From positions 1 to 64,000 of IMG/VR virus record IMGVR_UViG_3300025288_000013: DNA of 64,000 bases; one strand, given 5' to 3'. The position numbers were made by a program, and so were the translations under genes. The notes beneath the pieces were generated by a model, which was not told where the DNA came from, did no database searches, and was given only the letters and a program-made list of their open reading frames with translations. The stretch is from a virus. Shown piece after piece: positions 5,350-45,919 of this stretch. Every line of letters starts with the position of its first letter. Position 1 is the stretch's first letter.

Positions 5350-5955
5350 ATGAATAAAAATGTTCTTAAGGGTATCCATAATACAAATCCTGATTTATGC
5401 AAGGATGGTGTAATAACATGTGGTAATCTTATGCCATATGATCTTATTAATTTTGATAAAAGTATGGTAGATATGGATTTTATGATAAATTCTGTATCAA
5501 AAATAAACAGATACAATGGTCACAACAAACACAAAAACGGTTATTCTGTGGCACAACATTCGCACATAATGGCTATGTCTGCTTTAATGTGCTATGGTGA
5601 CATAGAACTGGCAAGACAATGTTTGTTCCATGATTTACCAGAGGCATATGTTATGGACATGGTAAAACCCATGAAAAATCTAATGGGAAAAACATATGCT
5701 GATGTGGAAAAACATGTAGAAAAAGTTGTCTATAAATTTTTAGATTTACCAGAAAAATTGGATTGTAGAGTCAAAGAAATAGACAAAAATATGGCACAAT
5801 TCGAAATGAGTATAATTTTACATGATTCAGAAAATGTTTATGGTTCGTTTGATATTTGGTCAGCAAAAAAATCAAGAATGGAATTTTCAAGAATGGTAGT
5901 TATGTTACTTGAATTATGCAAATACCAAGATAAAAATATAGTTAATTTAAAATAA
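5350..5955 (+). CDS. HD-domain deoxynucleotide phosphohydrolase (YfdR/YfbR/DatZ-like)
   Basis: Motifs INRYNGH, YSVAQHS, LFHDLPEAYVMDMVKPMK and KEIDK. Start moved to ATG 5350, downstream of the TGTAACAA-N15-GTT site. Confidence 0.85.
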   Translation: MNKNVLKGIHNTNPDLCKDGVITCGNLMPYDLINFDKSMVDMDFMINSVSKINRYNGHNKHKNGYSVAQHSHIMAMSALMCYGDIELARQCLFHDLPEAYVMDMVKPMKNLMGKTYADVEKHVEKVVYKFLDLPEKLDCRVKEIDKNMAQFEMSIILHDSENVYGSFDIWSAKKSRMEFSRMVVMLLELCKYQDKNIVNLK

Positions 5956-5958
5956 AAC

Positions 5959-6933
5959 ATGGAAACAGTAACCAAAAATAGATTGTATATAGATAAATTG
6001 TTCACAGAAACGTTTGAACCAAAAGATTACAAAAATTTCGTATTACCAAAAAGAATAAAAAGCCATTTCCCAAATGGCGAGATTCTCAACAATAGTTTGC
6101 TTTGTGGAACCGCTGGTTGTGGTAAATCGTCTTTTGCTAAGTATCTTGGTAGAATTAATAATAATAATTTTTATTATTTGAATTCATCACTTGACACATC
6201 AAAAGGTATTCTTGAAGAGGGTAGCGAATTACACACATTTTGTTCAACATTTTCATTCGAGGGCAAAAGAAAAGTTGTATTGTTTGATGAAATTGACGGT
6301 GTATCAGCAAGTTTTTTTAATGCATTGAAAGGTTTTATGGATACATTCAATAAGGTTAGATTTATTGCCACAACGAACCATATAGAAAACATACCCGCAC
6401 CAATTTTATCAAGATTTTCTGTTATAGATTACAATTTTGAAAGTAAAGAAGAGGAGCAAGAGCAATTTGATGGATATAAGATAAGAATTTATAAAATAAT
6501 GACACATCTTGGTATAGCCGTTGATTCAAAGAATTTGAATGAGTTATGTAAGCGTTATTTTCCAGATTTTAGATCAAGTTTACAATTGTTACAAAGGCTA
6601 ATAAACAACAACATAAAAACAATAGACGAAAATGTTGTTAACAGAAAAAGTTTTGAACATAACGAACTTTATTCTTTAATATTAAATGCAACAACCACAG
6701 ACAATAGGCACATACACACAGAACTAACGTCAATATCGAATCCACTATATGCTATTCATACAATGGACAATGACTTTATGGATTACCTTGAGAAAAATAA
6801 TGCGTCTAAAGTCATTCACTATGGCGATATAATAATAACAATAGCTAAATACAATAACATGGTCAACAATAGAGTTGATCCAATGATATGTTTGAAAGCA
6901 TTAGTATTTGAATTAATAAAAATTGTTAGATAA
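5959..6933 (+). CDS. Sliding-clamp loader AAA+ subunit (T4 gp44/RFC-like)
   Basis: Walker A GTAGCGKS, Walker B VVLFDEID, sensor ATTN, PILSRF and FPDFR. Confidence 0.9.
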   Translation: METVTKNRLYIDKLFTETFEPKDYKNFVLPKRIKSHFPNGEILNNSLLCGTAGCGKSSFAKYLGRINNNNFYYLNSSLDTSKGILEEGSELHTFCSTFSFEGKRKVVLFDEIDGVSASFFNALKGFMDTFNKVRFIATTNHIENIPAPILSRFSVIDYNFESKEEEQEQFDGYKIRIYKIMTHLGIAVDSKNLNELCKRYFPDFRSSLQLLQRLINNNIKTIDENVVNRKSFEHNELYSLILNATTTDNRHIHTELTSISNPLYAIHTMDNDFMDYLEKNNASKVIHYGDIIITIAKYNNMVNNRVDPMICLKALVFELIKIVR

Positions 6934-6941
6934 GCTTTTAT

Positions 6942-7688: not shown

Positions 7689-7694
7689 ATAAGA

Positions 7695-10638: not shown

Positions 10639-10641
10639 TAG

Positions 10642-10670
10642 TGTAACAAATCAACCTATCCACAGTTTAT
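10642..10670 (+). promoter_or_regulatory. TGTAACAA-N15-GTT promoter (gp62/deaminase operon)
   Basis: Exact motif and spacing. Confidence 0.8.
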
Positions 10671-10686
10671 ATTAAAAAAACTGAAT

Positions 10687-11118
10687 ATGATAGACCTCTT
10701 TGGATTTGTTGATGCCCTATTCTGTAAAACTACCTGGAAAAATGTTTCTGACAATGATAAATACAAGCATTCTTACATGGTTAATAGATTTCTTTCCATA
10801 AGATACCCAATAGAGATAAATAATTGTCAAATAGTTGGACTTGGAAAAAAGAACACTATTCGATTAATGAACTATTGGCATCACATTTTGTCAAAAAGTT
10901 ATCAAAGACCCCCATTCTGGCTAAAGACAAAAAGTGGCACAAAGAAAACACAAAATGATTTATTAAAAGTGTTTGATAAAGAACATATAGCTGCTTACAG
11001 TAGAACTTATATGATCGATACCAAAACATTGAACGATTTGTGTCAATTTTTTCCAAAAGAACTTGTTGCTGATATGAAATCGTTTAATAAAAAAGACGAA
11101 TTAAAGAAAACAAAATGA
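10687..11118 (+). CDS. Clamp-loader small subunit (T4 gp62-like)
   Basis: YMVNRFLS and FWLK motifs with 143-aa size; middle-type promoter upstream. Confidence 0.55.
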   Translation: MIDLFGFVDALFCKTTWKNVSDNDKYKHSYMVNRFLSIRYPIEINNCQIVGLGKKNTIRLMNYWHHILSKSYQRPPFWLKTKSGTKKTQNDLLKVFDKEHIAAYSRTYMIDTKTLNDLCQFFPKELVADMKSFNKKDELKKTK

Positions 11119-12116
11119 ATTTAACAAGAAACGACATATTATTATTAGATAAGTCTGACTTACACGCCCACTTGGGTTCTATGGTCGGCAGCAAAAGGCT
11201 TTGGGAACTTGCACACGAACAAGGATTGAAATTACCAACAAAAGATTTTAGAAAATTCAATGATATAATAAGTGGGACTAATGATAGTGGATTAAATCAT
11301 AAAAAGTATTTGAATAAGTTCAATCTTACACAAAAAATACAAGGCTCACCATTAGCTGTTGAACAAAGTGTATTTAATGCCATTTCTGAATCTTATTTGA
11401 ATGATAACATAACACTTCTTGAATTAAGATTTAATCCATTCCTAAGAAACAGATCTGGGTTTTATGATGTTGACATGGTTATCTCCCATGCGTGTATTGG
11501 CTTGATTCGTGCAATGTCTATATATCCAGTAAAAGCTGGCATAATAATAAGCACCGATAGGTCGTTTGACAAAAAATTGACAAACATATTAGCCAAGAAA
11601 GCCATAAAATATAAAAACATTGGCGTAATTGGTTTTGATATGAGTGGAGGAAATGTTTCTGAATTTAACATAAAAGATTTCGAATCAGCATTTAAAATGG
11701 TGAAAGAAGCTGATATGGGTACAACAATCCACACGGCTGAAGTTGCTAACATATCTTTGGATGAAACCAAGTATATAGTTAAAAATTTTGATATCGATAG
11801 AATTGGTCATGGAATAAGAATCATTGAAGATATAAATTTGTTGACATACATAAGTTCAAAGAGGATACATTTAGAGATTTGTCCAACAAGTAATGTTATA
11901 ACAAAATGTGTAAATAATTATAAAGATTTTAATAAAATTTTGAACATTTTACAAATGAATCATGTTGATATTAGTATAAACACTGATGGGTGTGTATTTC
12001 TAAATACATCTGTTACAAATGAATATGACAAATTGCATGACATCGGTTTTGTTTATGACATTGAGCAGATAAAAGAATTAGAACAATCATCCATAAAAGC
12101 ATCATTTATAAGATGA
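11115..12116 (+). CDS. add: Adenosine/AMP deaminase family protein (atypical)
   Basis: DLHAH, ELRFNP, GFDMSG, IHTAE, RIGHG, HLEICPTSN and INTD motifs. Confidence 0.9.
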   Translation: MNLTRNDILLLDKSDLHAHLGSMVGSKRLWELAHEQGLKLPTKDFRKFNDIISGTNDSGLNHKKYLNKFNLTQKIQGSPLAVEQSVFNAISESYLNDNITLLELRFNPFLRNRSGFYDVDMVISHACIGLIRAMSIYPVKAGIIISTDRSFDKKLTNILAKKAIKYKNIGVIGFDMSGGNVSEFNIKDFESAFKMVKEADMGTTIHTAEVANISLDETKYIVKNFDIDRIGHGIRIIEDINLLTYISSKRIHLEICPTSNVITKCVNNYKDFNKILNILQMNHVDISINTDGCVFLNTSVTNEYDKLHDIGFVYDIEQIKELEQSSIKASFIR

Positions 12117-12355
12117 AAAATAATGAGAAAATAGAGATAAAGGGTTCATACCTTAATTATATACAATCGTTGATAGACAAATCACCAAATTTCTTTAAAT
12201 ACCAACAAACCATATTGAATTCTGTTAAAAAAACGAACGGTAAGGTTGAAAATGATGATTATTTTGTTATAACAAGTAGACAACTAAATGCTATAAAAAA
12301 TGTTGTGGGTGGAAAATTGAAAGATGAACAATTAAGATACAGCAGCAAAAATTAA
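12113..12355 (+). CDS. Hypothetical protein
   Basis: ATGA-coupled to the deaminase gene. Confidence 0.55.
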   Translation: MKNNEKIEIKGSYLNYIQSLIDKSPNFFKYQQTILNSVKKTNGKVENDDYFVITSRQLNAIKNVVGGKLKDEQLRYSSKN

Positions 12356-19796: not shown

Positions 19797-21440
19797 TTAA
19801 TTTTTGTATATTTTCTTACACAACCGTTTGTATCTGCTCTGTATTATCATTTTATTGCCATGCAATTTATATAGAATGTCTTTGTGAAATTCTATGTTTA
19901 TGTTATCAATCTTTTCACTCTCTATTTCATATAATATGTTTCCATGCATATATACCATTCTATCAAACGAATAGCCATATCTAACAAATTCATTGTCATA
20001 TATCAACGAAAATTGAGATTTTAACGATTTTATTAATAGTGTAGGATTTTGTGACGTGACACTACATATATATACATATCTTTTGACCAGTTTTGTTATT
20101 CTTTGGTGAGACATTTCTTTTATCATTTTGCTTATCTGACTTTTTGAAAGATCAAACAACTCTGAAATTTTTTTGAAACCATATCTGTATTCTAAACCAA
20201 AATCGCAACTCATTAACTTATAATATTGTTTCGGTGACATAACTAATAGGTTATTCAAATATTCGATATCCTTTATTTTTATATAAATTGGATCACAACA
20301 TGAATGTGAAACGTCTATTGAATTATTTATGCTTAGTCTTGGCACATTATAATTTTTTATCAACAACGATATGTTTTTATCCAGAACACAATGATTTTTT
20401 GATATCATATCATCTGTTTTATCATCATAATACTGATTTTCTGATATCATGTTTCCCATTTTTCTTATTGATTCGGCATTTTTCTTGAAATTTTTTTTTC
20501 TATTTATGTTAGAATGTAGTGATGAAATTTCCCCCAAAATGCTCCTGTTCTGCACTTCTAAAATGTTTTTGTTGTCAATAGCTATATTTTTGTTGTTCTT
20601 CAATCTTTCCTCTATTATGTTTGTTTGTCTGTCTTCAATGTTTATTAGTCTAACGCCAAGCCTAATAACGGAGTTATTTTTGTTTTTAAATAAATGGTGA
20701 TATAAATTTTGCGGATTAGACCCCCTTATTCTGTTGAAAACATAACGATACACAGAGTTAAATTCACTAGATTTTTTGTTACCAACATATTTGTTTTGTA
20801 CGCTGTAATTGTTTTCTGTTAAGACAAAATAATCGCCATTTTTTGGTAGTTTCTTTTTCTTTGACATAGAAAATTCTCTGTTCATTGATCTTTTTATGTT
20901 CATTGATATTTTTCTTTTTTCCAAATGTTCAGCATATTTTATGTATATGTACCTAAGAACATATTGGACATACTTAAAATCAAAATTTTCTGCGGTCGCA
21001 GAAGCCATGTCATTGTTGTTGAGTTTTAAAACAGAATCTATACCATTTTCACAATAATATGTGTTATATTCCTCCAAAACTTTTATACAAAGTCTATTCA
21101 GTGATATCAATCTTAGGGTTTTGTTATCTTTATCAAATGTTGCCATACCACATTGTATCATATTTTGAATATACCTATAATAAGATCTATCAGATATGTT
21201 GAATTTTGTACAAATTTTGTTCTTTGTGTGTTGTGATTTATAGTTATTGATTGTTTTGTGCTTATACAAATTTGATATAAGTGTGTGGAACACATATGCT
21301 TTTTCCCTCGTGTCATTTCTTTTGTGTTTTAAAATATCTGGTAGATTGTGATATTCATCAGATAGTGAATCCATTAATTTTCTTCTTAAGCCACCATAAA
21401 TAAATGGCATTATGCCAACATTCATTCTTATTAATCCCAT
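19797..21440 (-). CDS. Basic DNA-binding protein with two putative (w)HTH regions
   Basis: ICTKFNISDRSYYRYIQNMIQCG and FKKISELFDLSKSQISKMIKEM; K/N-rich. Confidence 0.5.
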   Translation of the reverse strand: MGLIRMNVGIMPFIYGGLRRKLMDSLSDEYHNLPDILKHKRNDTREKAYVFHTLISNLYKHKTINNYKSQHTKNKICTKFNISDRSYYRYIQNMIQCGMATFDKDNKTLRLISLNRLCIKVLEEYNTYYCENGIDSVLKLNNNDMASATAENFDFKYVQYVLRYIYIKYAEHLEKRKISMNIKRSMNREFSMSKKKKLPKNGDYFVLTENNYSVQNKYVGNKKSSEFNSVYRYVFNRIRGSNPQNLYHHLFKNKNNSVIRLGVRLINIEDRQTNIIEERLKNNKNIAIDNKNILEVQNRSILGEISSLHSNINRKKNFKKNAESIRKMGNMISENQYYDDKTDDMISKNHCVLDKNISLLIKNYNVPRLSINNSIDVSHSCCDPIYIKIKDIEYLNNLLVMSPKQYYKLMSCDFGLEYRYGFKKISELFDLSKSQISKMIKEMSHQRITKLVKRYVYICSVTSQNPTLLIKSLKSQFSLIYDNEFVRYGYSFDRMVYMHGNILYEIESEKIDNINIEFHKDILYKLHGNKMIIQSRYKRLCKKIYKN

Positions 21441-21551
21441 AAATTAAAAACCATAGAGTTATTGTTGTGTTGCAACATATTGATAAATATGAAGTTTATA
21501 AAAATATGAAAAAAATCAATTAAATATTACATATCAAATACTTGGGGTCTT

Positions 21552-21740
21552 GTGGAGTTTAAAATATCTGATACTGATGTAAAAGTTTCAAAAGACATGT
21601 TCGTTTCAGAAATGTCAATGGTATTATCAACCTATGAATGTAGTTCTGTGATTGATCAAATGGTAAAAGAACTTGAAATAAATGGTTCTATGTCAGTAAG
21701 GAAAATAAAAACCAAAAAATTCACCATAAAATATAATTGA
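21552..21740 (+). CDS. Small hypothetical protein
   Basis: ORF coupled to the next gene. Confidence 0.4.
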   Translation: MEFKISDTDVKVSKDMFVSEMSMVLSTYECSSVIDQMVKELEINGSMSVRKIKTKKFTIKYN

Positions 21741-22027
21741 CCATGTTCGAAGTAATTTGTATAAACGATTCAAATAGACCAGATGGTATACCGATACCAA
21801 AATGGGTTAAAAAAGGAAATAAGTACACAGTTATAAAGATGGATCACTTAAACGTACAGAATAGGATTCTTGGATTTCAACTTGAAGAAATAGACTTATC
21901 AGATTGCTTTCCAATAACTTATTTTCTTGCTAGCAGGTTTGTACCAATATCAGATTTGGATAAAGAAGCCGAAGAAAAGGTTAAACAATTGTTAGAAGAA
22001 TCTTTGAGTACTGTTCATATAAATTAG
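21737..22027 (+). CDS. Hypothetical protein (SH3-like phage family)
   Basis: VICINDS...KGNKYTV...YFLASRF pattern common in small phage proteins. Confidence 0.55.
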   Translation: MTMFEVICINDSNRPDGIPIPKWVKKGNKYTVIKMDHLNVQNRILGFQLEEIDLSDCFPITYFLASRFVPISDLDKEAEEKVKQLLEESLSTVHIN

Positions 22028-22036
22028 ATCACAACA

Positions 22037-22058
22037 TAAAGCTTGGCACGATTTTTGC
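22037..22058 (+). promoter_or_regulatory. Sigma54-type (-24/-12) promoter, copy 1
   Basis: TAAAGCTTGGCACGATTTTTGC matches TGGCACG-N4-TTGC; identical 22-mer at 48964. Confidence 0.7.
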
Positions 22059-22095
22059 GGTGTATATTATATAAACCAATTAAATTTGTATAAAA

Positions 22096-22299
22096 ATGTA
22101 CAAAGCCCACTTATTTCAAAGCATTGGAAACAATAAACTTCATCCAAGCAGAACACAATGTGGAAGACGCCTATTTAGGAACAATAGAGGAACACATGTT
22201 GTCAAAGGAAAAGAATTTAAAAGACAATATGATGAAGATTCAACTGTTTTGTGTGAAAAATGTTTAGAATGGGCAAAAGAAAACGGAAAGATAATATGA
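22096..22299 (+). CDS. Small Zn-binding hypothetical protein
   Basis: AH...TQCG...CEKC pattern; first gene after the sigma54-type site. Confidence 0.6.
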   Translation: MYKAHLFQSIGNNKLHPSRTQCGRRLFRNNRGTHVVKGKEFKRQYDEDSTVLCEKCLEWAKENGKII

Positions 22300-23122: not shown

Positions 23123-24019
23123 TCACAGGACATTGTTCATAGTAAAACCAACAAGTTTATTATCAATTATATATTGATCACGTGCTTGTGCTGCATCAAA
23201 TTCATCAATAAAAGAGCCAATATGTTTTTGTTTATTGTTTACACAGATTTTTGATATGAATACCGAATCCCTTTTCGAATAATATATGCCAACATATTGA
23301 CTTGTTCTATTTTCTTGTTTTCTTTTATTTCTGTTTTGTATTGATAATGTTGCCCATCTACAATTTGATGGCTCATATCCTTTGTTATTATCAATTCTAT
23401 CAATAGTTAAATCTTTTGTCCACCCATTAGCAATTGACCAATCATAAAAGGCTTTAAAATCATTTTTCCACTCCTCACAAACAGTTATTCCACGACCACC
23501 ATATATTTTAAATGATTTATCGTTTTTATTGTAACATCTTTTTATCATACTGTTATATTTGACATATAACAGATGTTTGCTTAAACCATGTTTATATCCA
23601 TGATTTGACTTACCGAACCTTTTGCAACCACAAGACACAATATCGTTTGATGATACTTGATGTATTGTGGTTTCCCATTCATTTCCACAATGACACAAAA
23701 ATAATGCCTTTCTTTCTTCTCTTCCATCTGGTCTTTTGTATGGATTAACTTCTTTTATAAATTTTATGTTGTTATCCCCAATTTCTTGATCAATACAATA
23801 TTTTATTATGTTTGAACTATTTTTTCTGCACCCACAAGACTTTGTGATATCAGATTTTACTTTGGCTATAATTGCGGAAAAATTTTTGCCACAATGACAT
23901 AAAAATTTACCTCTTCTAAAGATTTTATTTTTTGGAGAAATATATGGTTCAATTTCTTTTATAAACTTTATATTATTATTACCCAATATTTGGTTTTGTG
24001 TATACTTTATTTTAGCCAT
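23123..24019 (-). mobile_element. Free-standing HNH/AP2 homing endonuclease
   Basis: Two FLCHCG...SCGC zinc-ribbon repeats, MIKRCY, YGGRGITVCEEW, TIDRIDNNKGYEPSNCRWAT and a C-terminal AP2 domain. Likely start MAKIKY at 24019. Confidence 0.85.
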
Positions 24020-24024
24020 ATTAA

Positions 24025-24053
24025 AATAACCAAAACAAATAGTTTTTGTTACA
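24025..24053 (-). promoter_or_regulatory. TGTAACAA-N15-GTT promoter (homing endonuclease)
   Basis: Exact motif just upstream of ATG 24019. Confidence 0.7.
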
Positions 24054-24066
24054 ATATCATTTTGTA

Positions 24067-27611: not shown

Positions 27612-28263
27612 AACTATAAAACAAATAAAATTTTCTACCATTTATTATATGTTCAGATGATTTTCTCGTTGTATTTGATTTAATACAATCATACATGGCT
27701 ATTTTTTCTTTGTTATCAGATAAACTATCAAATTTATCATAAATATTTATAGAATGAGATTTGTCTTCCATGTTATCATAAAGATATTTACACAAATAAA
27801 AGAACTCCATATCATTAATGTCACAATTGTTTTTCGTGCCAGCATAAACGAATACGCCCATAGTGACAACACAATCATCCATTCTAAACCATTCTACAAA
27901 ATCGAGATAATCGAGATAATCTATAAAAGTTCTTATGCCATTCTCTTTTGTCTGCCCCCAAGTACCGTCACCAAATAATTCATATATTATTGTTTCACCA
28001 TCAGAGTCAACAACTATGTTGGTAGTGGTTATAATATCAAAATCTTCACTAACAGCCGTATTGTCAATAACACATATGTTATTAAAATCAAATTTTTTGG
28101 TTGTACTCACAACATTATATAAAATAAATCTATCATTATTAGACATTTTACCCATTGTTTTTTTGTCAAAGAATAATTGTAGATAATATGATATATAATC
28201 CAAATAAGGTTTATCATACCTTATCTCGTCAAGATTGTGATTATTTATATAATTTATTACCAA
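27607..28263 (-). CDS. Hypothetical protein
   Basis: Coupled to the polymerase gene. Confidence 0.55.
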   Translation of the reverse strand: MVINYINNHNLDEIRYDKPYLDYISYYLQLFFDKKTMGKMSNNDRFILYNVVSTTKKFDFNNICVIDNTAVSEDFDIITTTNIVVDSDGETIIYELFGDGTWGQTKENGIRTFIDYLDYLDFVEWFRMDDCVVTMGVFVYAGTKNNCDINDMEFFYLCKYLYDNMEDKSHSINIYDKFDSLSDNKEKIAMYDCIKSNTTRKSSEHIINGRKFYLFYSL

Positions 28264-31094
28264 AACAATGCTCCGTTTATATCGTTTAAATCATATTTTA
28301 GTTCATTAGCCCCATCGATAAGCTTAAGCATACTGTTTACAGGTGCTAATATCAATGTTTCAAATTGTTTTTTGTAATCTGCTTTTGGGTGTGTGTGTGG
28401 CAATCCTTCATTTATAGGAAAACCAAAAACCATTGTTTTTTTGGTACTACCCTTTACATAATAGACACCTATTCTGTCACCATTTGATATGAGTTTATAT
28501 TTTTCGCACCCAGTTTGTGTTTTTATCCAGTTATTATAATAACCAGCTGCTTTACTGTTCATTGGTGCGCCAGAAACAAATGTTAATGGGTTGTCTGATG
28601 ATATGTATTTGTAAACATCGTTGACCCTTTCAACAGCACATATGTCTTGTATATCACATTTATTGAACATTTCTTTTATTTGTTTTACTTCATCTATTAT
28701 GGGTTTCATCTTAAAATCAGATGTTTGTTCCATAATCTTTATTGTTATTTTTTTAAGACTTTCTCTAACAAATTTTGGCTTACTTCCTTGATTCATTTCA
28801 ACACCCTTTGGGTTAAGTTTTTCTAACAATTTGTAAAAAGAACCCTCTGACCAACTTGTGTTTTTTATATATTTTTTCTTTTTTATAAAAAGGATTGATG
28901 CATTTATTTGTTCCAATCCAAGCCCGAAACTTTCTTCACCATCTGGTTTTGTTCTGAACGCCCCCCATTTATCACAATACTTTTTCATGGATTGTATAGA
29001 GAATTCATTTAAAATGTGTTTATGTGTATCTAAACAAAATTCCCTCCTCCAGGAGTTTATCTCATTTGCCTTATCATTTAGCAGATTTGTTTTATCGGTT
29101 AAAGATAAACCAACTAATTTGTCTTCGTATTTTAAATCAGTATCCTTTTTGAATTTTATCCATTCTTCTGTGTTATTTATGACATTCTTCATGTGAACAA
29201 AAACAGAATCAGTATCAGCATAAACAATAACATCTTCGTCTAATTCTTTTGTCACGGTTATCCCCATTAATTTGTGTGATTCTTTGTCATTGTGCCACTT
29301 ATTTCTGAAGTAATCGTTGAACTCTGAAATTGTATATTTTAGTAAATCTCTACTTTGCGACGTGACACTACTTGCAACATCTATATTAAACAATGGAAAT
29401 CCAGACCAACCAAGAACACCATAAATAGAATTCATTATAATTTTCATGGCTGCAGCCTCATTACCATAAATCATAGACAGTTTTTCAAGCCTACTTATTT
29501 CTTCTGCCCTATTTATACTATAATTGTCGATATTTATGTGTTTTGGGTTATCAATTTTCGTCCCATTTTTGATAGCATTTAATTCGGCATCGATTTCCTT
29601 ATTCCATACCTTACGTTGAACCCTACCATTAAACAACGAGAATACCATTTTTCTTAAAGAAGAATCACCTTTATCTTTTAAATAAACTATTCCGTTTGGT
29701 GATATTATGTGTTTAGATTTATCTATTTTTATTTCCTTTTCGTCAGCATCAGATGCAAATGTTATGTAATCAGATGTTTTTCCAATCTTTGTGTCTATTC
29801 CATAATTAAAAGCCATCATACCAGATGGAAACATGGACGTAAAATCATATATCATAACATCATCGACCATACCTCTTTTAAGCGGTTCCAAAACATATCC
29901 GCCAGCGTATGTTGAATTTTCATTGTTGAATTTGTTTATGAATACTTGATTGTTTTCATAATACCAGTCACAAAACAACTTTTCGCACATCATACCAGCA
30001 AACAATGAATCATGTATGGGAACGCCAACAAAAGATGAAAGTGCCAAAGGCGTATCAAATGTGTTTGTTTTCCTGTCTATAAGTTGAACGAGAATGCTAT
30101 CAACGGCATTATAAAATAAAAATGTTTTATAATCATTTCTGTAAAGTTCGTCAAGAGTTGACGGGTGATGAACTTTATTGATACCAAGAACATTTTCAGC
30201 AACAGCATCAAGAGATAAAGCTGTTTTTAATGACCTATCAAATTTTCCATAAATTTCCATATAATCAAGAGTTGGTGAATGATATGGTACAGGAATGTTT
30301 ATCTTCTCTTGATTTTTTGCATATTTATCAGCAACACGTAAAACAAAATGGTTATTTGTTGGACTAGCCTTGTGCATAAACTTATAATTTCTTTTATATT
30401 GTTCAATATTATCAAGATCAAACCCATACATTGTTATACCACGATTTGACAAATATTGATCATCAAATTTCAAACTGTTCCAACCAAACAACATGTTTAT
30501 TTCATGTTTTCTTTTATTGTTCATAGCTGTCATAAGCCGCTCTTCTGATTCATACATTGTGTAATTAACAATATATGGTTCTTTCAACAAACTTTTGTCC
30601 TTTATCTTTTTGACGTGTTCATTTATCCTTAATTCTATGCCATTTATGTCACTCATTGATAATTGTTTCAATCCGAAGATTTCAACTAAATATCCCGTTA
30701 CAAAAACATTTGATAACACAGCATGTTTTGGGTTACCCGCATTTGGGAAAGAACCTATGGATTCAGTTTCTATATCGAAAAATGTTTTTTCTGGTTGATT
30801 CTGTTTATAAAACAACTCTTTTAGGTCTTTCGGTAAACCCTGAAGAAGTTCATATATTCTATATTTTGATAATTTTTTATATTTTTTAAGGGGTATTTTC
30901 CTTACAGAATTACCGTATGCGGATTTAAAATTTTTATCAGCATATGGGTTGTTTGGATTGCACTCTTCCCATTCGTACAACTCTTTTTTTGATATGTTTA
31001 ATTTTTTTAGCTGTTTTTTACCATTGTTGTCCCAATAAGAAATGAATATATGTGATGGCAGACCATCTACTAAAACTTGTTCTAAATGTATCAT
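28257..31094 (-). CDS. polB: Family B DNA polymerase (T4 gp43-like)
   Basis: Exonuclease motifs FDIET, GWNSLKFD and YNAVD; polymerase motifs YDFTSMFPS, KIIMNSIYG, YADTDS and KKKKY. Confidence 0.95.
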   Translation of the reverse strand: MIHLEQVLVDGLPSHIFISYWDNNGKKQLKKLNISKKELYEWEECNPNNPYADKNFKSAYGNSVRKIPLKKYKKLSKYRIYELLQGLPKDLKELFYKQNQPEKTFFDIETESIGSFPNAGNPKHAVLSNVFVTGYLVEIFGLKQLSMSDINGIELRINEHVKKIKDKSLLKEPYIVNYTMYESEERLMTAMNNKRKHEINMLFGWNSLKFDDQYLSNRGITMYGFDLDNIEQYKRNYKFMHKASPTNNHFVLRVADKYAKNQEKINIPVPYHSPTLDYMEIYGKFDRSLKTALSLDAVAENVLGINKVHHPSTLDELYRNDYKTFLFYNAVDSILVQLIDRKTNTFDTPLALSSFVGVPIHDSLFAGMMCEKLFCDWYYENNQVFINKFNNENSTYAGGYVLEPLKRGMVDDVMIYDFTSMFPSGMMAFNYGIDTKIGKTSDYITFASDADEKEIKIDKSKHIISPNGIVYLKDKGDSSLRKMVFSLFNGRVQRKVWNKEIDAELNAIKNGTKIDNPKHINIDNYSINRAEEISRLEKLSMIYGNEAAAMKIIMNSIYGVLGWSGFPLFNIDVASSVTSQSRDLLKYTISEFNDYFRNKWHNDKESHKLMGITVTKELDEDVIVYADTDSVFVHMKNVINNTEEWIKFKKDTDLKYEDKLVGLSLTDKTNLLNDKANEINSWRREFCLDTHKHILNEFSIQSMKKYCDKWGAFRTKPDGEESFGLGLEQINASILFIKKKKYIKNTSWSEGSFYKLLEKLNPKGVEMNQGSKPKFVRESLKKITIKIMEQTSDFKMKPIIDEVKQIKEMFNKCDIQDICAVERVNDVYKYISSDNPLTFVSGAPMNSKAAGYYNNWIKTQTGCEKYKLISNGDRIGVYYVKGSTKKTMVFGFPINEGLPHTHPKADYKKQFETLILAPVNSMLKLIDGANELKYDLNDINGALFW

Positions 31095-34024: not shown

Positions 34025-34351
34025 TTATTTTATTTTATATATAACATCTGATATAACATAATATGTTTTGTCTATCTTTATATGAGTAGGTATTATCAAT
34101 TCATTGTATATGACAACCACAACATTTTTTTGTTTTTCATCAGAATATTCATGTATTATCATTTTCTTTTGTTTGTTTTCTTTTGTAAATGAAGAAAAAA
34201 TAAAAAAAGATTGTTCTCCAAACAAATTTAATGTATCATTTGATACCACTATGCTGCCACCATCTGTCACATAGGTAACGTCATCTGTTTGTTGGGAAAA
34301 TAGCTGTGAGGAAATTATGAGTGTTGAAATTAATGTTATTATTTTTTTCAT
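34025..34351 (-). CDS. Secreted hypothetical protein
   Basis: Signal peptide MKKIITLISTLIISSQLFSQ; cleavage before Q is a Bacteroidetes-like trait. Confidence 0.55.
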   Translation of the reverse strand: MKKIITLISTLIISSQLFSQQTDDVTYVTDGGSIVVSNDTLNLFGEQSFFIFSSFTKENKQKKMIIHEYSDEKQKNVVVVIYNELIIPTHIKIDKTYYVISDVIYKIK

Positions 34352-34812
34352 AAAAATTCTGGGGGTTTATAATTTATGCTTTTTAATATTTTATGATCTG
34401 ACACCCTATATATAACATAGATATTGTGCTTTTCATTAAACCTATAATAAGTTTTTATACCATCTAAACCATATTTATTAACTGATTCAATGGCTTCATC
34501 TATGGTTTTACAAAATTTTGACATATTGCTTTTGTGGACTTTTTCCAGATCTCCAAAAACCATATCAGCTATACCTCTTTCGTGTGCGAAACCAATGATA
34601 ACATATATTAAATCAGCTATGGCATCTCTTTGTTCAATATGATTGTTATTTATTGTCGCCATTGATAATTCGAAAAATTCTTCTTCTATCAAGTCAAGTC
34701 TAAGATTTGTTCTTTCTTCTGACATGTCTGTCAATTTATTGGAAATTGGTTGTTCACCACATTCCATGAATTCTCTTACCATACTAATTAGTTTGTTCAT
34801 TTTATTATTCAA
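34348..34812 (-). CDS. MazG-like all-alpha NTP pyrophosphatase
   Basis: LIEEEFFEL, DAIADLIYV, VHKSNMSK and KILKS. Confidence 0.85.
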   Translation of the reverse strand: MNNKMNKLISMVREFMECGEQPISNKLTDMSEERTNLRLDLIEEEFFELSMATINNNHIEQRDAIADLIYVIIGFAHERGIADMVFGDLEKVHKSNMSKFCKTIDEAIESVNKYGLDGIKTYYRFNEKHNIYVIYRVSDHKILKSINYKPPEFL

Positions 34813-38602: not shown

Positions 38603-39262
38603 ATGATAAAAAAAGAAAAAATAAGATTTGGTCTTGAAAGAATAACCAATACGCATTGTTTTATAAAAACTTATATAAATGGCGTTATAGAATATGCAAA
38701 TGTTTCTGATGGTATTTCTAGTGGGTTCAACTTTATACCAGAGGAAGAGTATGATACAATAAATCACTATTTTGTTGAAAAGAAAATTGTTCTTGTTGGC
38801 GGAGGTGCTTGTGGTAAGGATTATTACAAAGATTATATGATTGGCGTTGGGTTGATACCGGACATATCGTACACAACAAGACAAAAAAGACAAAAAGAAG
38901 TTGATGGAGTATCATATAATTATATATCAAGAGAAAAATTTGAAAGCATGATTGTTGGAGCAGAATTTTTGCAATGGAACAAATTTGGAAATGACAATTA
39001 TTATGGTACTACAAAAGAATCATTTAAAAGCAGTGATATCTTTATAATGACACCAAATGTTCTTAATTGTATGGATAACAGTGTTAGAGAAAAATTTTTT
39101 GTCATATTTTTCGACATAGACGAAGGCTTAAGAAGAGAGAGGCTTAAGAAGAGAGGTTATTCAGATAAAGATTGTGAAAAAAGATTTGATATAGATAAAA
39201 AAACCTTTGATAATTTTAATAGCTTTGATATGGTTGTAACAAATCCAAATTTTATACCTTAG
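38603..39262 (+). CDS. gmk: Guanylate kinase-like nucleotide monophosphate kinase
   Basis: GGGACGKD P-loop, SYTTRQKRQKEVDGVSYNYIS, NYYGT and ERLKKRG. Confidence 0.85.
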   Translation: MIKKEKIRFGLERITNTHCFIKTYINGVIEYANVSDGISSGFNFIPEEEYDTINHYFVEKKIVLVGGGACGKDYYKDYMIGVGLIPDISYTTRQKRQKEVDGVSYNYISREKFESMIVGAEFLQWNKFGNDNYYGTTKESFKSSDIFIMTPNVLNCMDNSVREKFFVIFFDIDEGLRRERLKKRGYSDKDCEKRFDIDKKTFDNFNSFDMVVTNPNFIP

Positions 39263-40758: not shown

Positions 40759-40769
40759 TTACAGTTAAT
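40741..40769 (+). promoter_or_regulatory. TGTAACAA-N15-GTT promoter
   Basis: Exact motif upstream of 40786. Confidence 0.7.
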
Positions 40770-40785
40770 GTAAAAATTATTTATT

Positions 40786-41238: not shown

Positions 41239-41256
41239 ATAACATAAATTCTATTT

Positions 41257-42135: not shown

Positions 42136-42146
42136 AAACAAATACT

Positions 42147-42175
42147 TGTAACAATCTAACACTACAAAGGTTTTT
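42147..42175 (+). promoter_or_regulatory. TGTAACAA-N15-GTT promoter (HU)
   Basis: Exact motif and spacing. Confidence 0.8.
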
Positions 42176-42221
42176 TATGGGTAAATAATTTAAATATTAA
42201 TCAATTAAAAACAGAAAAATT

Positions 42222-42527
42222 ATGACAAAAGCTGATTTAATTACTGGCGTAAAAGCTGCAGTAGAAAAAGAAACTGGTAAAGACGTTTCAAAAAAAATGG
42301 TAAAATCCGTAATCGATTCCACGTTGGAAGCTATTAATGGATGTATGGAAAAAGGTGAAGAATTATTGTTACAACCTGTCGGAAGATTTGGTGTAAAATT
42401 CAGAAACCCTCGTAAAGCAACTAACATGACAACTGGTGAGCCTATTGCTGTTCCAGCCAAATATGTTCCCCATTTTTCTCCAACTAGCAAATTGAAAGAT
42501 GCTGTTGCCTCACTACCTGTTGAGTAA
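42222..42527 (+). CDS. hup: HU/IHF-family DNA-binding protein
   Basis: MTKADLI, GRFGVKFRNPRKATNMTTGEPIAVPAK and FSPTSKLK. Confidence 0.9.
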   Translation: MTKADLITGVKAAVEKETGKDVSKKMVKSVIDSTLEAINGCMEKGEELLLQPVGRFGVKFRNPRKATNMTTGEPIAVPAKYVPHFSPTSKLKDAVASLPVE

Positions 42528-42549
42528 CTACAAATTTACAGTTTAAGTT

Positions 42550-42583
42550 AAAAGCCTATGGTAAAAATATCATAGGCTTTTTT
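42550..42583 (+). terminator. Rho-independent terminator after HU
   Basis: AAAAGCCTATG-loop-CATAGGCTTTTTT. Confidence 0.8.
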
Positions 42584-42611
42584 GTAACAATCTATTCATA
42601 AAACAGTTTAT
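42583..42611 (+). promoter_or_regulatory. TGTAACAA-N15-GTT promoter (primase-exonuclease-GroES-purZ operon)
   Basis: Exact motif, immediately after the HU terminator. Confidence 0.8.
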
Positions 42612-42616
42612 AACAT

Positions 42617-43666
42617 ATGTTAAACTTACAAATAGATTTCACAAAACATGATACTGAAAATGTTGTAAAAATATCAACAGATAACATAAGAAAAGAAATC
42701 GAAAGCATATTATTAAGGGTTCACACACAATCACAAAAACAAGAAGTTGTTGATAGGGATGGCGGTTTCAATATAGCTTGTCCCTTTTGTGGTGATTCAA
42801 AAGATAACCCAAACAAAAAAAGAGGAAACATATATTTGGACACAAACACGTTCAAATGCTACAATTGTACAATATGGATGCCTCTTGAGGAATTTTTCCT
42901 AAAATTCAACTCTGATGTTGGTTTTAAAATAGCCAAGTTTGATCTTGAAAATTTTGTGTCCAAAACAAAAACAAAAATTTCGTTGTATGATATATATGAT
43001 ATAGGCAACCAATACATAGAAAGAGGGTCACTAATGAAAGAAATGAAATTGAAAAATATAGTAGACGATTATAAGACGGCAAAATATTTGGAAAGTAGAA
43101 AGATAGATATAAATGATAGAAGATTGGCTGTTAATAGTTTTTCAAGAAGTATAGTATTTTTTAATATGCATGATGATAAGGTCATAGGTTTACAAAAAAG
43201 AATACATGAGCCAACAAATGGCAACAGATTCATATCATATGATTATGGTAGCATAATGGAAAAAATTATTAAAAGTGATTATGACAAAGATAGAGCCTTA
43301 AAGATAAAACGCATATCGTTACTGTATAACATATTAAATGTTGATTTTTCTAAGAAAATTAACACATTCGAATCATCAATAGACAGCCATCATTTTACTA
43401 ACAGCATTGCGTGTTGGGGTTCAAATTCCATACTTAAATTACCAAATTGTCAGTATGGCATGGATGATGACGTTGCCGGTAGGAAAGCGTCTATAAAATT
43501 ATTAAAATCTGGCTATAAAGTGTTCATGTGGGGTGAGTTCAAACATAACAATACAATTTATCGTAATTGCAAAGATTTTAATGACATATTTAAATTAAAA
43601 CCAATAAGCCAAAAAACATTTGAAAGTTATTTAACAGATTCAGAATTAGACATAATATCATTATGA
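42617..43666 (+). CDS. DNA primase (T4 gp61-like)
   Basis: ACPFCGDS...KCYNC zinc finger; TOPRIM ESSID, DDDVAG and KDFND. Confidence 0.85.
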   Translation: MLNLQIDFTKHDTENVVKISTDNIRKEIESILLRVHTQSQKQEVVDRDGGFNIACPFCGDSKDNPNKKRGNIYLDTNTFKCYNCTIWMPLEEFFLKFNSDVGFKIAKFDLENFVSKTKTKISLYDIYDIGNQYIERGSLMKEMKLKNIVDDYKTAKYLESRKIDINDRRLAVNSFSRSIVFFNMHDDKVIGLQKRIHEPTNGNRFISYDYGSIMEKIIKSDYDKDRALKIKRISLLYNILNVDFSKKINTFESSIDSHHFTNSIACWGSNSILKLPNCQYGMDDDVAGRKASIKLLKSGYKVFMWGEFKHNNTIYRNCKDFNDIFKLKPISQKTFESYLTDSELDIISL

Positions 43667-44256
43667 AAAAAACAATAATATTCGACACAGAAACAACAGG
43701 CATTGTGCCAAAAGGTATGATGTACAAAGACCCAAATTATCCAAGATTATTACAACTTGCATGGGTAATATTAGATGAAGATGGGAACGAATTAGACAAA
43801 AGAAAAAACTATATAAAACCGAATGGGTTTTTAGTACCAAACACAGAATTTCACAAAGCAAATGGTTTGACACAAGAGGTGTGTGACAAAGGTGAAAACC
43901 CAATAGACGAATTGAATTTTTTGCTTGATGCTATTGAAAAATCAGAAGTTTTGTTGGCACATAATATGTTATTTGATTATTTTATAATAGCTTCAGAATT
44001 ACACAAAAACAACATAATTAGGAAAATAGAAAGGAAACCTAAGTATTGTACAATGATGTCAACAATAGATTTTTGCCAACTACCGTCACCATATGGAAGA
44101 GGATTTAAATTTCCTCGTTTGGAAGAACTTTATAAAAAATTGTTCAACGAAACTTTTGAAAATGCACATGATGCGTTTGCTGATGTAAAGGCTACCGCAA
44201 GATGCTATGTTGAATTAAATAGACTTGGTGTACCAATAAAAGAAGTATTAAAATGA
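43663..44256 (+). CDS. DEDDh 3'-5' exonuclease (DnaQ-like)
   Basis: FDTETTG, AHNMLFD and AHDAFADV. Confidence 0.9.
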   Translation: MKKTIIFDTETTGIVPKGMMYKDPNYPRLLQLAWVILDEDGNELDKRKNYIKPNGFLVPNTEFHKANGLTQEVCDKGENPIDELNFLLDAIEKSEVLLAHNMLFDYFIIASELHKNNIIRKIERKPKYCTMMSTIDFCQLPSPYGRGFKFPRLEELYKKLFNETFENAHDAFADVKATARCYVELNRLGVPIKEVLK

Positions 44257-44624
44257 GAGTACCAGGAACCAACATAATAGTTGAACAAAATAGCGATCCA
44301 AATAAGGTTATTGGTAATATCATATTTGATCATAGCAAGAAATATACAAAAAATATGGGTGTTGTTAAATACCTTAGTAAGTTTTGTGAAACAAATCGTG
44401 GAACAATTTGTGATATAAATATTGGCGATATAGTTCACTTTTCTGATGAAGCTGGTGTATATATTGACAAAAAAAACATGAAAAACATTCTATTGATAGA
44501 TTACAGAGAAATAATACTAATATCTGAATCAGAAGAAAACGAAATTTTTGTTGGCGAGGACATGAGATTTTATTTAGAAGAGGACATAGCAAACAGACAA
44601 ATGGAAAAAACATCTAATAATTAA
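44253..44624 (+). CDS. GroES-like co-chaperonin
   Basis: GVV...INIGDIVHFSDEAG...LLIDYREII. Confidence 0.55.
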   Translation: MRVPGTNIIVEQNSDPNKVIGNIIFDHSKKYTKNMGVVKYLSKFCETNRGTICDINIGDIVHFSDEAGVYIDKKNMKNILLIDYREIILISESEENEIFVGEDMRFYLEEDIANRQMEKTSNN

Positions 44625-44635
44625 ACAAACACAAA

Positions 44636-45919
44636 ATGAAACAAACAAAACGAACAAAAACGAACAATTTCTTTAAAAATGGTAAAATATCATTTGTAAT
44701 GGATGGTGCAGCTGGTAGTTCAGGCAAAAGCTTAATATCGTCGTATTTAGTGAAACATGCTAACAATGTTGATTTTATATTATCAGCCTTTACGCCAAAC
44801 GCAAGTCACACAGTTATAGATGATGATGGCAAAGAATTTGTTTTTAAAATTTTTGCAGGTGGTTCACAATACCACGAAAAACTAAAAGCTGTTTATATAA
44901 CAGATAATGCTGCAATAGAGTTAAAAACTCTGTGGAAAGAGATTGACTATCTTGGTATACCAAAAGAAAAGGTTAGAATTTCTCCAATGTGCATGATAGT
45001 TCAACAAATAGACATTGATTATGAAGCTGGACTGTGTGATCTTGATGGAAATTATTATTCAAAGAACGAGTTGAGGGATGGTACTGTTAAAACAGGGAGC
45101 ACTTGTTCTGGTAGTGGCACTGTTTTGGCTAAAAAGGTTCTTAGAAATAAGACACTGGTAAAAGCCAAAGATGTTGAAGAACTGAAAGAGTTTTTGTATG
45201 AAATGGATGAAATAATTTCAAGACTTGAAACAGGTGATAGAGGTTTAATGGAAATGGCACAAGGGTTTCCATTGTCAGTGAATCATCACATGTTTGCACC
45301 GCATACAACAAGTAGAAATGTTACAGTTACTAATGCTATGAATGATGCTATGATACCACCAAGATTTGCTGGTAACGTTTTAATCAACTTTAGAACGTAT
45401 CCAATCAAAATTCATAGTAATAAGTATAAATGTAACAAAACCGGTAAGTTTCTTACATGGGATGAGGTGAACAAGATGAAGACTGATATTGATTATGTTG
45501 TTGTTGAATCAAATTCTGGCGACTTTTATCCTGATCAAACAGAAATGAGTTGGGATCAAATAACCAAAGAATCTGGGTCTGAAAAGAAACTCATGGAATG
45601 CACAACACTTACAAAATTACCAAGAAGAATAGCTTCATTTAGTAAACAAAATCTTGTAGAGGCAATTAGATTCAATGACACAGGTGGTCAAATTTGGTTA
45701 TGTGTTAATTTTGTTAATTATGTTGTTTCTGGAATCTATGGTGAAAGGGAGTATTTTAACTTACACATTGACTTTGAAAAATATGAAAAACTTCACAATT
45801 GGATTCATGAAAACATAACCAGAGTTATATATGCAGACAATTCTATAGACGAAACAAGAGTTTCTCTTAAATATCTTGGTACAGGTGAAAAAATCGAAGA
45901 TAGAATAGAAATGCCATAA
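44636..45919 (+). CDS. purZ: PurZ-type N6-succino-2-amino-dAMP synthase (adenylosuccinate synthetase paralog)
   Basis: GSSGKS (Ser in place of the PurA catalytic Asp), PNASHT, GSTCSG, AQGF, TTSRNVT, RTYPIK, TTLTKLPRR (Leu at the PurA Arg303 position) and NFVNY (instead of TKLD). Confidence 0.85.
   Translation: MKQTKRTKTNNFFKNGKISFVMDGAAGSSGKSLISSYLVKHANNVDFILSAFTPNASHTVIDDDGKEFVFKIFAGGSQYHEKLKAVYITDNAAIELKTLWKEIDYLGIPKEKVRISPMCMIVQQIDIDYEAGLCDLDGNYYSKNELRDGTVKTGSTCSGSGTVLAKKVLRNKTLVKAKDVEELKEFLYEMDEIISRLETGDRGLMEMAQGFPLSVNHHMFAPHTTSRNVTVTNAMNDAMIPPRFAGNVLINFRTYPIKIHSNKYKCNKTGKFLTWDEVNKMKTDIDYVVVESNSGDFYPDQTEMSWDQITKESGSEKKLMECTTLTKLPRRIASFSKQNLVEAIRFNDTGGQIWLCVNFVNYVVSGIYGEREYFNLHIDFEKYEKLHNWIHENITRVIYADNSIDETRVSLKYLGTGEKIEDRIEMP

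Follow-up and report, generated by a model that had tools for sequence, protein, structure and literature searches.

Does a T4-like phage with a family B DNA polymerase replace the adenine of its genome with 2-aminoadenine (Z)? Genomes with Z are known from the literature in sipho- and podoviruses of roughly 40 kb, which use DpoZ or PrimPol. The question is raised by a long PurZ-like gene in a 64,000-nt window (the whole stretch of DNA that was analysed), part of a 110,222 bp phage contig from groundwater. The initial annotation assigned six genes of the window to a Z pathway: PurZ, an HD hydrolase equated with DatZ, a MazG-like enzyme equated with MazZ, a Gmk-like kinase, a deaminase and PolB. 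All six genes were confirmed at their positions (Table 1). The reading as a whole was borne out for PurZ, for the T4-like phage, for PolB and for the unclustered genes. Conversely, DatZ, MazZ, the "jumbo" genome and specific co-regulation were not supported.

Table 1. Positions of the genes and promoter-like motifs discussed in the text.
Feature	Position	Strand	Remarks
HD-domain phosphohydrolase, Atu1052/YfbR-like	5350..5955	+	Pfam HD_3; phrog_318 (dNMP phosphatase) 4e-29
TGTAACAA-N15-GTT promoter-like motif	10642..10667	+	Heads run 10687-12355, deaminase included
ADA-fold deaminase, PurZ-linked subfamily, 333 aa stand-alone	11115..12116	+	Pfam A_deaminase 3e-45
Family B DNA polymerase (T4 gp43-like)	28257..31094	-	Pfam DNA_pol_B and exonuclease domain
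All-alpha NTP pyrophosphohydrolase (PRA-PH/MazG-like)	34348..34812	-	Pfam PRA-PH 1e-11; phrog_671
Guanylate-kinase-like kinase (Gmk), candidate dZMP (and dGMP) kinase	38603..39262	+	Pfam Guanylate_kin 6e-15; phrog_1815
TGTAACAA-N15-GTT promoter-like motif	42583..42608	+	Heads run 42617-47773
PurZ-like, predicted succino-2-amino-deoxyadenylate synthase, long lineage, 427 aa	44636..45919	+	Pfam Adenylsucc_synt
T4-type large terminase (TerL)	45980..47773	+	Pfam Terminase_6N; directly 3' of PurZ-like gene

Identity of the PurZ-like enzyme

The PurZ-like protein was compared with published PurZ discriminators (bioRxiv 10.1101/2025.10.22.683976; PMC12884076). Catalytic Asp13 is 99% conserved in true PurA, and Ser in its place is a PurZ criterion (PMC12884076). 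This position is Ser in 120 of 120 relatives, and the P-loop of the window enzyme reads GSSGKS. The ATP-type NTP pocket, N294-F295-x-N297-Y298 in phiVC8 numbering, reads NFVNY in the window enzyme. Each pocket residue is kept in 100-119 of the 120 relatives (F295 in 119, Y298 in 100). Residues W252 and P233 occur in all 120 and T262 in 119, and Arg303, which contacts the 2'-OH in E. coli PurA, is Leu in 118. Of the residues that make room for the 2-amino group, S14 and T262 are kept; the F12 position holds Ala in the window enzyme and 85/120 relatives, and Phe in the cultured phage MaF61.

Sequence and fold comparisons point the same way. The best PDB sequence matches were phiVC8 PurZ (1.6e-22) and S-2L PurZ (8e-17), with E. 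coli PurA at 7e-4; PurZ ranked above archaeal PurA and far above bacterial PurA. With an AF2 model (pLDDT 91), the top five Foldseek matches were phiVC8 and S-2L PurZ structures. In a maximum likelihood tree with E. coli PurA as single PurA outgroup, and no archaeal PurA, the long clade and classic PurZ form sister groups (support 99/97), with PurZ0 and E. coli PurA outside them. By sequence and modelled fold, the product is a PurZ-type enzyme and not PurA, with a predicted PurZ activity, as first proposed. It shares with classic PurZ the PurA fold, Ser for Asp13, the ATP-type pocket and the loss of the 2'-OH contact, and the same downstream steps (PurB, GMP kinase) would be expected.

The long clade is nevertheless distinct. 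It lies outside characterised PurZ (sister, not nested), at the end of a long branch and with 25-30% identity. Its proteins have 400-480 aa, the window enzyme being about 80 residues longer than classic PurZ, and besides the change of F12 to Ala they differ by a ~30-residue insertion and a C-terminal extension. NCBIfam PurZ (NF038379) is the best family for the window enzyme at 140 bits, less than half the curated cut-off of 300; phiVC8 PurZ scores 397 and PurZ0 368. Hence, annotation pipelines label such proteins ordinary adenylosuccinate synthetases and miss the implication. Handling of the DNA of such phages with restriction enzymes or nanopores is subject to the same blind spot. Relatives were found in 191 IMG/VR contigs, whereas 185,579 genomes of prokaryote species gave only seven weak matches (26-32% identity); the clade is viral. 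In one relative the PurZ-like gene is host to an intein next to the invariant TSRN motif, as would suit a strongly constrained gene.

The phage and its gene arrangement

The contig has 30% G+C and an estimated completeness of 64%, which implies a genome of roughly 170 kb. Complete relatives measure 129-168 kb, with contigs up to 280 kb. Thus, the description of the phage as jumbo (>200 kb) was wrong. Its T4-like character was confirmed by genes for a portal (Portal_T4, 2e-28), TerL (Terminase_6N), a gp44-like clamp loader (AAA/Gp44_lid), a gp32-like protein (weak match) and PolB. PolB is the sole replicative polymerase found in the contig. PolA (PF00476) was found neither there nor in three complete relatives and MaF61, all of which have PolB; the proposed use of PolB rather than a PolA-type DpoZ is therefore borne out. 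The long PurZ clade occurs in phage contigs of 110-280 kb with PolB, and in MaF61, a cultured Flavobacterium myovirus. The window phage is part of a large-myovirus lineage, apparently uncharacterised so far, that pairs a divergent PurZ with an unusual deaminase in place of the customary helper enzymes.

The candidate pathway genes are dispersed, as the initial annotation had noted. It had also called them co-regulated on the basis of a shared promoter-like motif, TGTAACAA-N15-GTT. We counted 13 copies of it in the window, where shuffled sequence predicts 0.13. All of them have a start codon in the same orientation 9-51 nt further on, and all six genes have a copy upstream. The HD, Gmk and PolB genes are the first after theirs, whereas the deaminase is second, the MazG-like gene third and the PurZ-like gene fourth in their runs. 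The run with the PurZ-like gene comprises an uncharacterised gene, an RNase T-like exonuclease, a GroES-like gene, the PurZ-like gene and TerL. However, 33 of the 56 window genes are in motif-headed units by an ORF-based count, including TerL, the gp32-like gene, the clamp loader and the GroES-like gene. Hence, the units do not mark a pathway regulon. The chance of all six genes falling in them is ~0.03, which is weakly unusual.

Partner enzymes and possible adenine exclusion

The classic Z-cluster of phiVC8, S-2L and Acinetobacter phage SH-Ab 15497 combines PurZ, DatZ and MazZ/DUF550 with DpoZ or PrimPol. In the window, the HD protein does not correspond to DatZ. BLASTP found no significant similarity to S-2L or phiVC8 DatZ (E 0.7-8), and DatZ ranked only 17th by Foldseek (E 0.44). 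The protein matches the DatZ phrog at 4e-4, compared with 4e-29 for phrog_318. Its only PDB sequence match by phmmer was Atu1052, and where DatZ has the specificity residues W20 and I22 it has the motif R-Y-N-G. The HD family is found in at least 536 viral contigs; of 48 that were tested, 47 had no PurA-family gene (PF00709). By its sequence relationships, the HD protein is a generic phage nucleotidase. The MazG-like protein was likewise rejected as a MazZ orthologue, with no BLASTP similarity to S-2L MazZ and no PDB match to 7ODY. A search with PF04447 (DUF550) gave no match in the five records searched or in any control genome, a blank that is uninformative. Apart from that search, the 110 kb contig yielded no orthologue of the known dATP-removing enzymes DatZ, DUF550-type MazZ and DutZ-type dUTPase.

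We counted the other genes across 23 records with a long PurZ, many of them fragments and all counted irrespective of kinship. The MazG type of the window is in only 3/23. Gmk is in 10/23, and in 4/5 complete ones. A phage-encoded kinase for the pathway is thus plausible and frequent in the clade, but Gmk is not specific to PurZ: among 37 other viral contigs with Gmk (49-373 kb), 35 have no PurZ. PurB, at first assumed to come from the host, is encoded in 10/23 records and was not found on the window's 110 kb contig, which is 64% complete. Of the gene associations anticipated in related genomes, that of the deaminase with PurZ stood up, whereas those of HD, MazG and Gmk were unspecific or rare.

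The deaminase is the only tightly PurZ-linked accessory gene, a role that the initial annotation undervalued although it listed the gene in the pathway. ADA-like matches of any kind occur in only 5/50,697 phage records. The subfamily is known from 12 IMG/VR contigs; eight also have a long PurZ, and the other four are fragments of 16-52 kb. All seven deaminase-bearing contigs of at least 60 kb carry a long PurZ. Gmk adjoins the deaminase in the loci of four relatives, and in one PurZ is <2 kb away. The deaminase is present in 9/23 long-PurZ records. It is absent from the complete relatives G013, G014 and MaF61 and hence cannot be a universal exclusion device.

Catalytic residues H17, H19, H206, E209, H232 and D291 are invariant among six deaminase homologues. 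The ADA substrate contacts Asp19 (ribose OH) and Asp296 (N7) are both Gly in the window enzyme (HAHLGS, NTDG), and the replacements are conserved through the subfamily (HxHLG and NTDG motifs). With these contacts missing, and a score of 159 bits against TIGR01430 (cut-off 216), the enzyme was rejected as a canonical adenosine deaminase. The substitutions suggest an adenine (deoxy)nucleotide, rather than the free nucleoside, as substrate. Cad1, a CARF-fused ADA-fold ATP-to-ITP deaminase of type III CRISPR (PMC12669630), also has Gly for Asp19 and a replaced Asp296, and its substrate is a nucleotide, not adenosine. However, Cad1, an effector in defence, has 600 aa, a CARF sensor and Asn, not Gly, at Asp296; the phage enzyme, a putative nucleotide deaminase, has 333 aa and stands alone.

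Proposed routes to Z-containing DNA

We consider it probable that the gene encodes a functional PurZ of a deep lineage, the third in the PurZ group, that is found in large T4-like myoviruses with PolB, with the deaminase as likely substitute for the missing exclusion enzymes and Z replacing much or all adenine. Enzyme family, signature residues, phylogeny, fold and gene co-occurrence are the observed basis of this reading. We infer all enzymatic specificities, and Z in the DNA, from these data.

The PurZ-type enzyme would join aspartate to dGMP, with phosphate supplied by ATP or dATP. Adenylosuccinate lyase (PurB), which many relatives encode, would cleave the product to dZMP; here, the lyase may come from the host, or its gene may lie in the third of the genome that the contig lacks. 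The phage's guanylate-kinase-like enzyme would probably phosphorylate dZMP. PolB would then incorporate Z, and 2-aminoadenine would replace much or all adenine in virion DNA. Adenine would be excluded without DatZ, MazZ or DpoZ, most likely by the ADA-fold deaminase. Acting on adenine (deoxy)nucleotides, this enzyme would deplete the precursors of dA; the deaminated purine would re-enter the guanine branch by way of IMP dehydrogenase and GMP synthase of the host.

It is unlikely that dZMP is made but the DNA only partly substituted, or that Z serves another purpose. PolB would then take both dATP and dZTP, because there would be no dedicated dATPase and no Z-selective polymerase. The failure to find a DatZ, MazZ or DpoZ orthologue, and the complete relatives that do without the deaminase, agree with partial substitution. 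So does the Z cluster alone in E. coli, which gives only partial replacement (PMC8342488; bioRxiv 2025.10.22.683976). Conversely, S-2L reaches full substitution with a PrimPol that is not selective, through control of the nucleotide pools alone (PMC8065100), and PurZ-type enzymes consume (d)ATP themselves (PMC8342488). An unrecognised dATP-removing enzyme may also be among the many unannotated genes.

That the enzyme is an auxiliary PurA, which with PurB raises the supply of AMP and dATP to a genome of canonical DNA with 70% A+T, is highly improbable. Base composition, the Adenylsucc_synt match and the score under the PurZ cut-off would suit this role, and the MaF61 copy is annotated as adenylosuccinate synthetase and adjoins a phage PurB. 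However, Ser replaces Asp13 throughout, the GTP-specifying pocket has given way to the ATP pocket of PurZ, Arg303 is Leu and the accompanying kinase is a guanylate, not an adenylate, kinase. The tightly linked deaminase, predicted to destroy adenine, would work against AMP production. A drift of the long clade to another purine substrate or product, giving a modified purine other than Z, is scarcely credible: the long branch, the insertion and extension, Ala for F12 and the altered N7 and ribose contacts of the partner deaminase would allow it, but the remaining substrate-pocket discriminators all match PurZ, and the two steps that follow PurZ in the known Z pathway are precisely those of PurB and Gmk (bioRxiv 2025.10.22.683976).

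Under the preferred reading, with a functional PurZ, the system differs from the classic Z-cluster in its dispersed genes, its often phage-encoded PurB and Gmk, its specific deaminase and its larger T4-like hosts. The PurZ0 systems of actinophages (PurZ0, DutZ, DmtZ and DUF5664; PMC12884076) similarly join a PurZ core, with Ser for Asp13, to a different dA-removing set. The same paper calls such a core with independently acquired dA-removing enzymes 'functional convergence'. Unlike the window enzyme, PurZ0 has the pocket TMLDQ rather than NFxNY, and it branches outside the group of PurZ and the long clade.

A broader proposal is possible but doubtful. T4-like myoviruses, MaF61 included, would be a third independently equipped Z-genome lineage with a plain PolB, and many would exclude adenine by an ADA-fold deaminase rather than by hydrolysis (DatZ/DutZ/DmtZ). 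The adenine pool would pass to hypoxanthine nucleotides and, through the host, to guanine nucleotides, the feedstock of PurZ. This would be a full A-to-Z purine conversion route with PurZ, PurB and kinase phage-encoded.

If the lineage holds, Z-DNA would extend to T4-like myoviruses of 130-170 kb with PolB; in a 70% A+T genome, Z would make up about one base in three. A standard B-family replisome would be able to copy ZTGC DNA, and the deaminase would be a fourth answer to the adenine-exclusion problem. These proposals are directly testable in MaF61 (PQ858689, 167.8 kb), the nearest cultured relative, which has myovirus morphology (PMC13269007). Unlike the window phage, MaF61 encodes its own PurB and has no deaminase. 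Its PurZ-like protein and PolB share 43% and 32% identity with those of the window, and it has Gmk and HD homologues. Neither Z nor these genes come up in the MaF61 publication. In both phages, the PurZ-like gene adjoins TerL (ORF141/ORF142 in MaF61).

The PurZ-like protein and its relatives

Among solved structures, the sequence of the PurZ-like protein matched phiVC8 PurZ at 1.6e-22, S-2L PurZ at 8e-17, Pyrococcus PurA at 7e-14 and E. coli PurA at 7e-4. Published criteria define the residues that separate PurZ from PurA (bioRxiv 10.1101/2025.10.22.683976; PMC12884076). We counted residue conservation over 120 database relatives. The Asp13 position was Ser in all 120, W252 and P233 were likewise invariant, and T262 was kept in 119. 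The ATP-pocket residues N294, F295, N297 and Y298 were each found in 100-119 relatives, and Leu replaced E. coli PurA Arg303, the 2'-OH contact, in 118. The actinophage type, PurZ0, is unlike the long clade (relatives of 400-480 aa) and has an NTP pocket of TMLDQ at these positions. F12, a published PurZ residue, is Ala in the window protein.

The five best Foldseek matches of the confident AlphaFold model (pLDDT 91) were phiVC8 and S-2L PurZ structures; behind them came archaeal PurA, PurZ0 and bacterial PurA. In a maximum-likelihood tree of 64 sequences, the long clade had support of 100/99. The initial annotation had considered that the protein might cluster with PurA. Instead, the long clade joined classic PurZ (phiVC8 and S-2L type) at 99/97, separate from PurZ0 and E. 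coli PurA, in a tree rooted on E. coli PurA as the sole PurA outgroup and with archaeal PurA absent. A PurZ0-seeded search gave PurZ0-type proteins only among the top 120 matches listed. The protein has the PurZ signature and this tree placement, yet scored 140 bits on the NCBI PurZ model, for which the cut-off is 300. Hence, judged by sequence and predicted structure, it appears to represent a distinct third lineage, outside the characterised family if that is drawn strictly. The original assignment as PurZ therefore stands for hallmark residues, fold and side of the tree, but not for strict family membership.

The long clade is viral, since 185,579 prokaryote species genomes contained only seven weak matches, all in MAGs and at 26-32% identity. 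A protein search returned 243 clusters with lengths of 400-480 residues, and many of these lie on 110-280 kb contigs. Scanning IMG/VR with the single PurZ-like protein gave no close relatives; with an alignment as query, a relative was found on 191 contigs. About 40 of the best 80 contigs carried the long clade, on contigs of up to 256 kb. Flavobacterium phage MaF61 (PQ858689) was the only member among 50,697 deposited phage genomes, and its PurZ-like gene is not discussed in the MaF61 paper.

Several variants were observed. In one relative (L044) an intein that bears a LAGLIDADG homing endonuclease interrupts the gene and lengthens its ORF to 790 aa; it is inserted after residue ~226-234, beside the invariant TSRN motif. 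Seven long-clade PurZ-like proteins (P0027, P0055, P0056, P0057, P0071, P0076 and P0112) are 486-666 aa long, and no more than 60-72% of the query is covered by their alignments; neither P0055 nor P0071 has an intein or other extra Pfam domain. Shorter PurA-family proteins (334-400 aa), which match the long-PurZ profile weakly, are encoded on other viral contigs of 65-162 kb that have Gmk or PurB. These may be further phage PurA/PurZ lineages. Recurrent families of conserved neighbours exist across the loci of 41 relatives and the window. Of the ten tested, nine matched no Pfam family and the tenth matched AAA_21 weakly, below threshold.

Positions of features, and occurrence of accessory genes in 23 records carrying long PurZ, five of which are near-complete IMG/VR records
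Record	Feature	Position (strand)	Records (of 23)	Near-complete (of 5)
Window	PurZ-like gene, 427 aa	44636-45919 (+)		
Window	HD gene	5350-5955 (+)	8	4
Window	Deaminase gene	11115-12116 (+)	9	3
Window	PolB gene	28257-31094 (-)		
Window	MazG-like gene (window type)	34348-34812 (-)	3	0
Window	Gmk-like (guanylate) kinase gene	38603-39262 (+)	10	4
	PurB gene		10	3
Window	Kinase N-terminal extension	38603-38770		
Window	RNase T-like exonuclease and GroES-like (Cpn10) genes	43663-44624		
Window	Stretch added by TTG start, longest HD ORF	5257-5349		
Window	Promoter-like motif of HD gene	5301-5326		
Window	TTG-started ORF	23123-24070		
Window	Motif copy inside this ORF	24028-24053		
G013 (complete, ~150 kb)	PolB matches in two ORFs	C1:17395-17757; 42341-43090		
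G016 (complete, ~150 kb)	PolB matches in two ORFs	C1:132417-132830; 21306-22175		
L044 (IMGVR_UViG_3300015607_004608)	PurZ-like gene with intein	3521-5893		
G040	Contig with shorter PurA-family gene	C1:37597-37827		
G043	Contig with shorter PurA-family gene	C1:38947-39186		
G066, G068, G070, G071	Contigs with shorter PurA-family gene			

The deaminase and other accessory genes

The deaminase is the specific partner of long PurZ. Its subfamily was found on 12 IMG/VR contigs, eight of them with long PurZ; the remaining four contigs are 16-52 kb fragments. The two genes are found together on all seven contigs of at least 60 kb, the window's contig included. The kinase directly follows the deaminase in four loci, and in one locus the deaminase is <2 kb from PurZ. 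ADA-like genes were present in 5 of 50,697 deposited phage records, and no PHROG family was found for the window deaminase.

Metal-binding and catalytic residues of the deaminase are invariant. Canonical ADA contacts its substrate through Asp19 (ribose hydroxyls) and Asp296 (N7). Both contacts are Gly in ~75 deaminase clusters (50% identity). In Cad1, which deaminates ATP to ITP, the Asp19 position is likewise Gly (PMC12669630). We infer that the deaminase would act on an adenine nucleotide, serving as an adenine sink, and it may feed purine back to the guanine branch. This return would use host enzymes, because no phage IMP dehydrogenase was found in deaminase-positive genomes. Some complete relatives have no deaminase; hence, other adenine solutions must exist. 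Some distant relatives of the deaminase have been assigned to CPR and Chloroflexi MAGs; their contigs are 86-148 kb long. Gly/Gly examples are P0254 (NCBI NTU46015.1; 'Candidatus Roizmanbacteria', 148.6-kb contig) and P0271 (MCC6629710.1; Chloroflexota MAG, 86-kb contig). Both contigs may be misbinned phage, since their sizes are like those of the 150-kb phages here.

The HD and MazG-like genes had been proposed to encode DatZ and MazZ; neither identity was upheld. Pairwise BLASTP, a PDB sequence search and a fold search found no significant similarity between HD and DatZ, and the nearest structure was Atu1052. The HD family is present on >536 viral contigs, and 47 of 48 tested, including all 26 near-complete ones, lack any PurA-family gene. 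On these searches and the reverse co-occurrence, HD was rejected as DatZ; it is a generic phage nucleotidase-type gene. The MazG-like protein was rejected as MazZ: its sequence shows no relationship to that of S-2L MazZ, and few members of the clade carry this type. MazG-family genes of other types are found in four of the five complete relatives, a feature shared with many large phages.

The kinase is common in the clade, yet 35 of 37 other phage contigs with Gmk (49-373 kb) had no PurZ, which excludes it as a PurZ-specific marker. Co-occurrence in relatives, suggested as a check by the initial annotation, therefore links the deaminase to PurZ but leaves HD and the kinase generic and the window-type MazG rare. 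The N-terminal extension of the kinase, ~55 residues, is missing from most homologues, and that of one relative differs. PurB is frequent in relatives, in some only a few kb from PurZ, and none was found on this incomplete contig (64% estimated completeness). Viral PurB matches include giant-virus MAGs.

The phage and known Z systems

The IMG/VR contig is 110,222 bp long, with 30% G+C, and the window covers its first 64 kb. Near-identical DNA is present in assembled contigs from 2017 groundwater and aquifer metagenomes and from one 2025 hot-spring sample. Portal and large terminase are both T4-type, and the window also carries genes for a gp44-like clamp loader, a gp32-like protein and a family B polymerase (PolB). 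Among cultured phages, MaF61, a 167.8-kb myovirus, is the closest relative (identity 32% for PolB and 43% for the PurA-family protein). These genes and this relative make the description 'T4-like' valid in the broad sense. The label 'jumbo phage' does not hold for a contig of this length at its estimated completeness. PolB was present, and PolA absent, in every complete genome checked. In two complete relatives (G013 and G016) PolB matches fall in two far-apart ORFs of about 500 and 410-430 aa, which suggests a two-gene PolB.

In the published accounts, as far as covered here, phages with 2-aminoadenine (Z) are sipho- and podoviruses of seven groups. Those accounts describe PurZ or PurZ0 with DatZ/MazZ/DUF550 or DutZ/DmtZ/DUF5664, and DpoZ or PrimPol as polymerase; the portions covered do not mention PolB, myoviruses, a deaminase, or phage-encoded PurB or Gmk. 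The phage studied here is T4-like and has PolB, a deaminase and Gmk, and relatives often encode PurB. The clade may already be listed, uncharacterised, for example among the predicted Z viruses of Tong et al. 2023 (Nat Microbiol). By rough estimate, PurZ-type chemistry, taken alone, is probable. The full explanation adds to this chemistry that virion DNA has substantial Z and that the deaminase is the likely adenine sink; we favour it with some reserve. Substantial Z in the DNA, again roughly estimated by itself, is a shade less secure, and a deaminase-based exclusion route on its own is doubtful.

The promoter-like motif and gene starts

All six genes were located at the coordinates originally assigned to them. 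The motif TGTAACAA-N15-GTT occurs 13 times in the window (0.13 expected), in each case with a start codon 9-51 nt ahead of it. All six genes belong to co-directional runs behind a copy. By an ORF-based count, however, such runs take in 33 of the 56 window genes, among them terminase, gp32-like, clamp loader, GroES-like and endolysin-like genes. This phage uses the motif as a general promoter class, and common regulation tells little about one pathway. The proposed co-regulation is correct for the six genes but is not pathway-specific.

The RNase T-like exonuclease and GroES-like genes are directly upstream of the PurZ-like gene, in one promoter unit. The longest HD ORF has a TTG start upstream of its own promoter-like motif. 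Because alignments of homologues begin near the ATG at 5350, this is likely to be the start of the HD gene. A further motif copy is located inside another TTG-started ORF, for which the ATG at 24019 is the probable true start.
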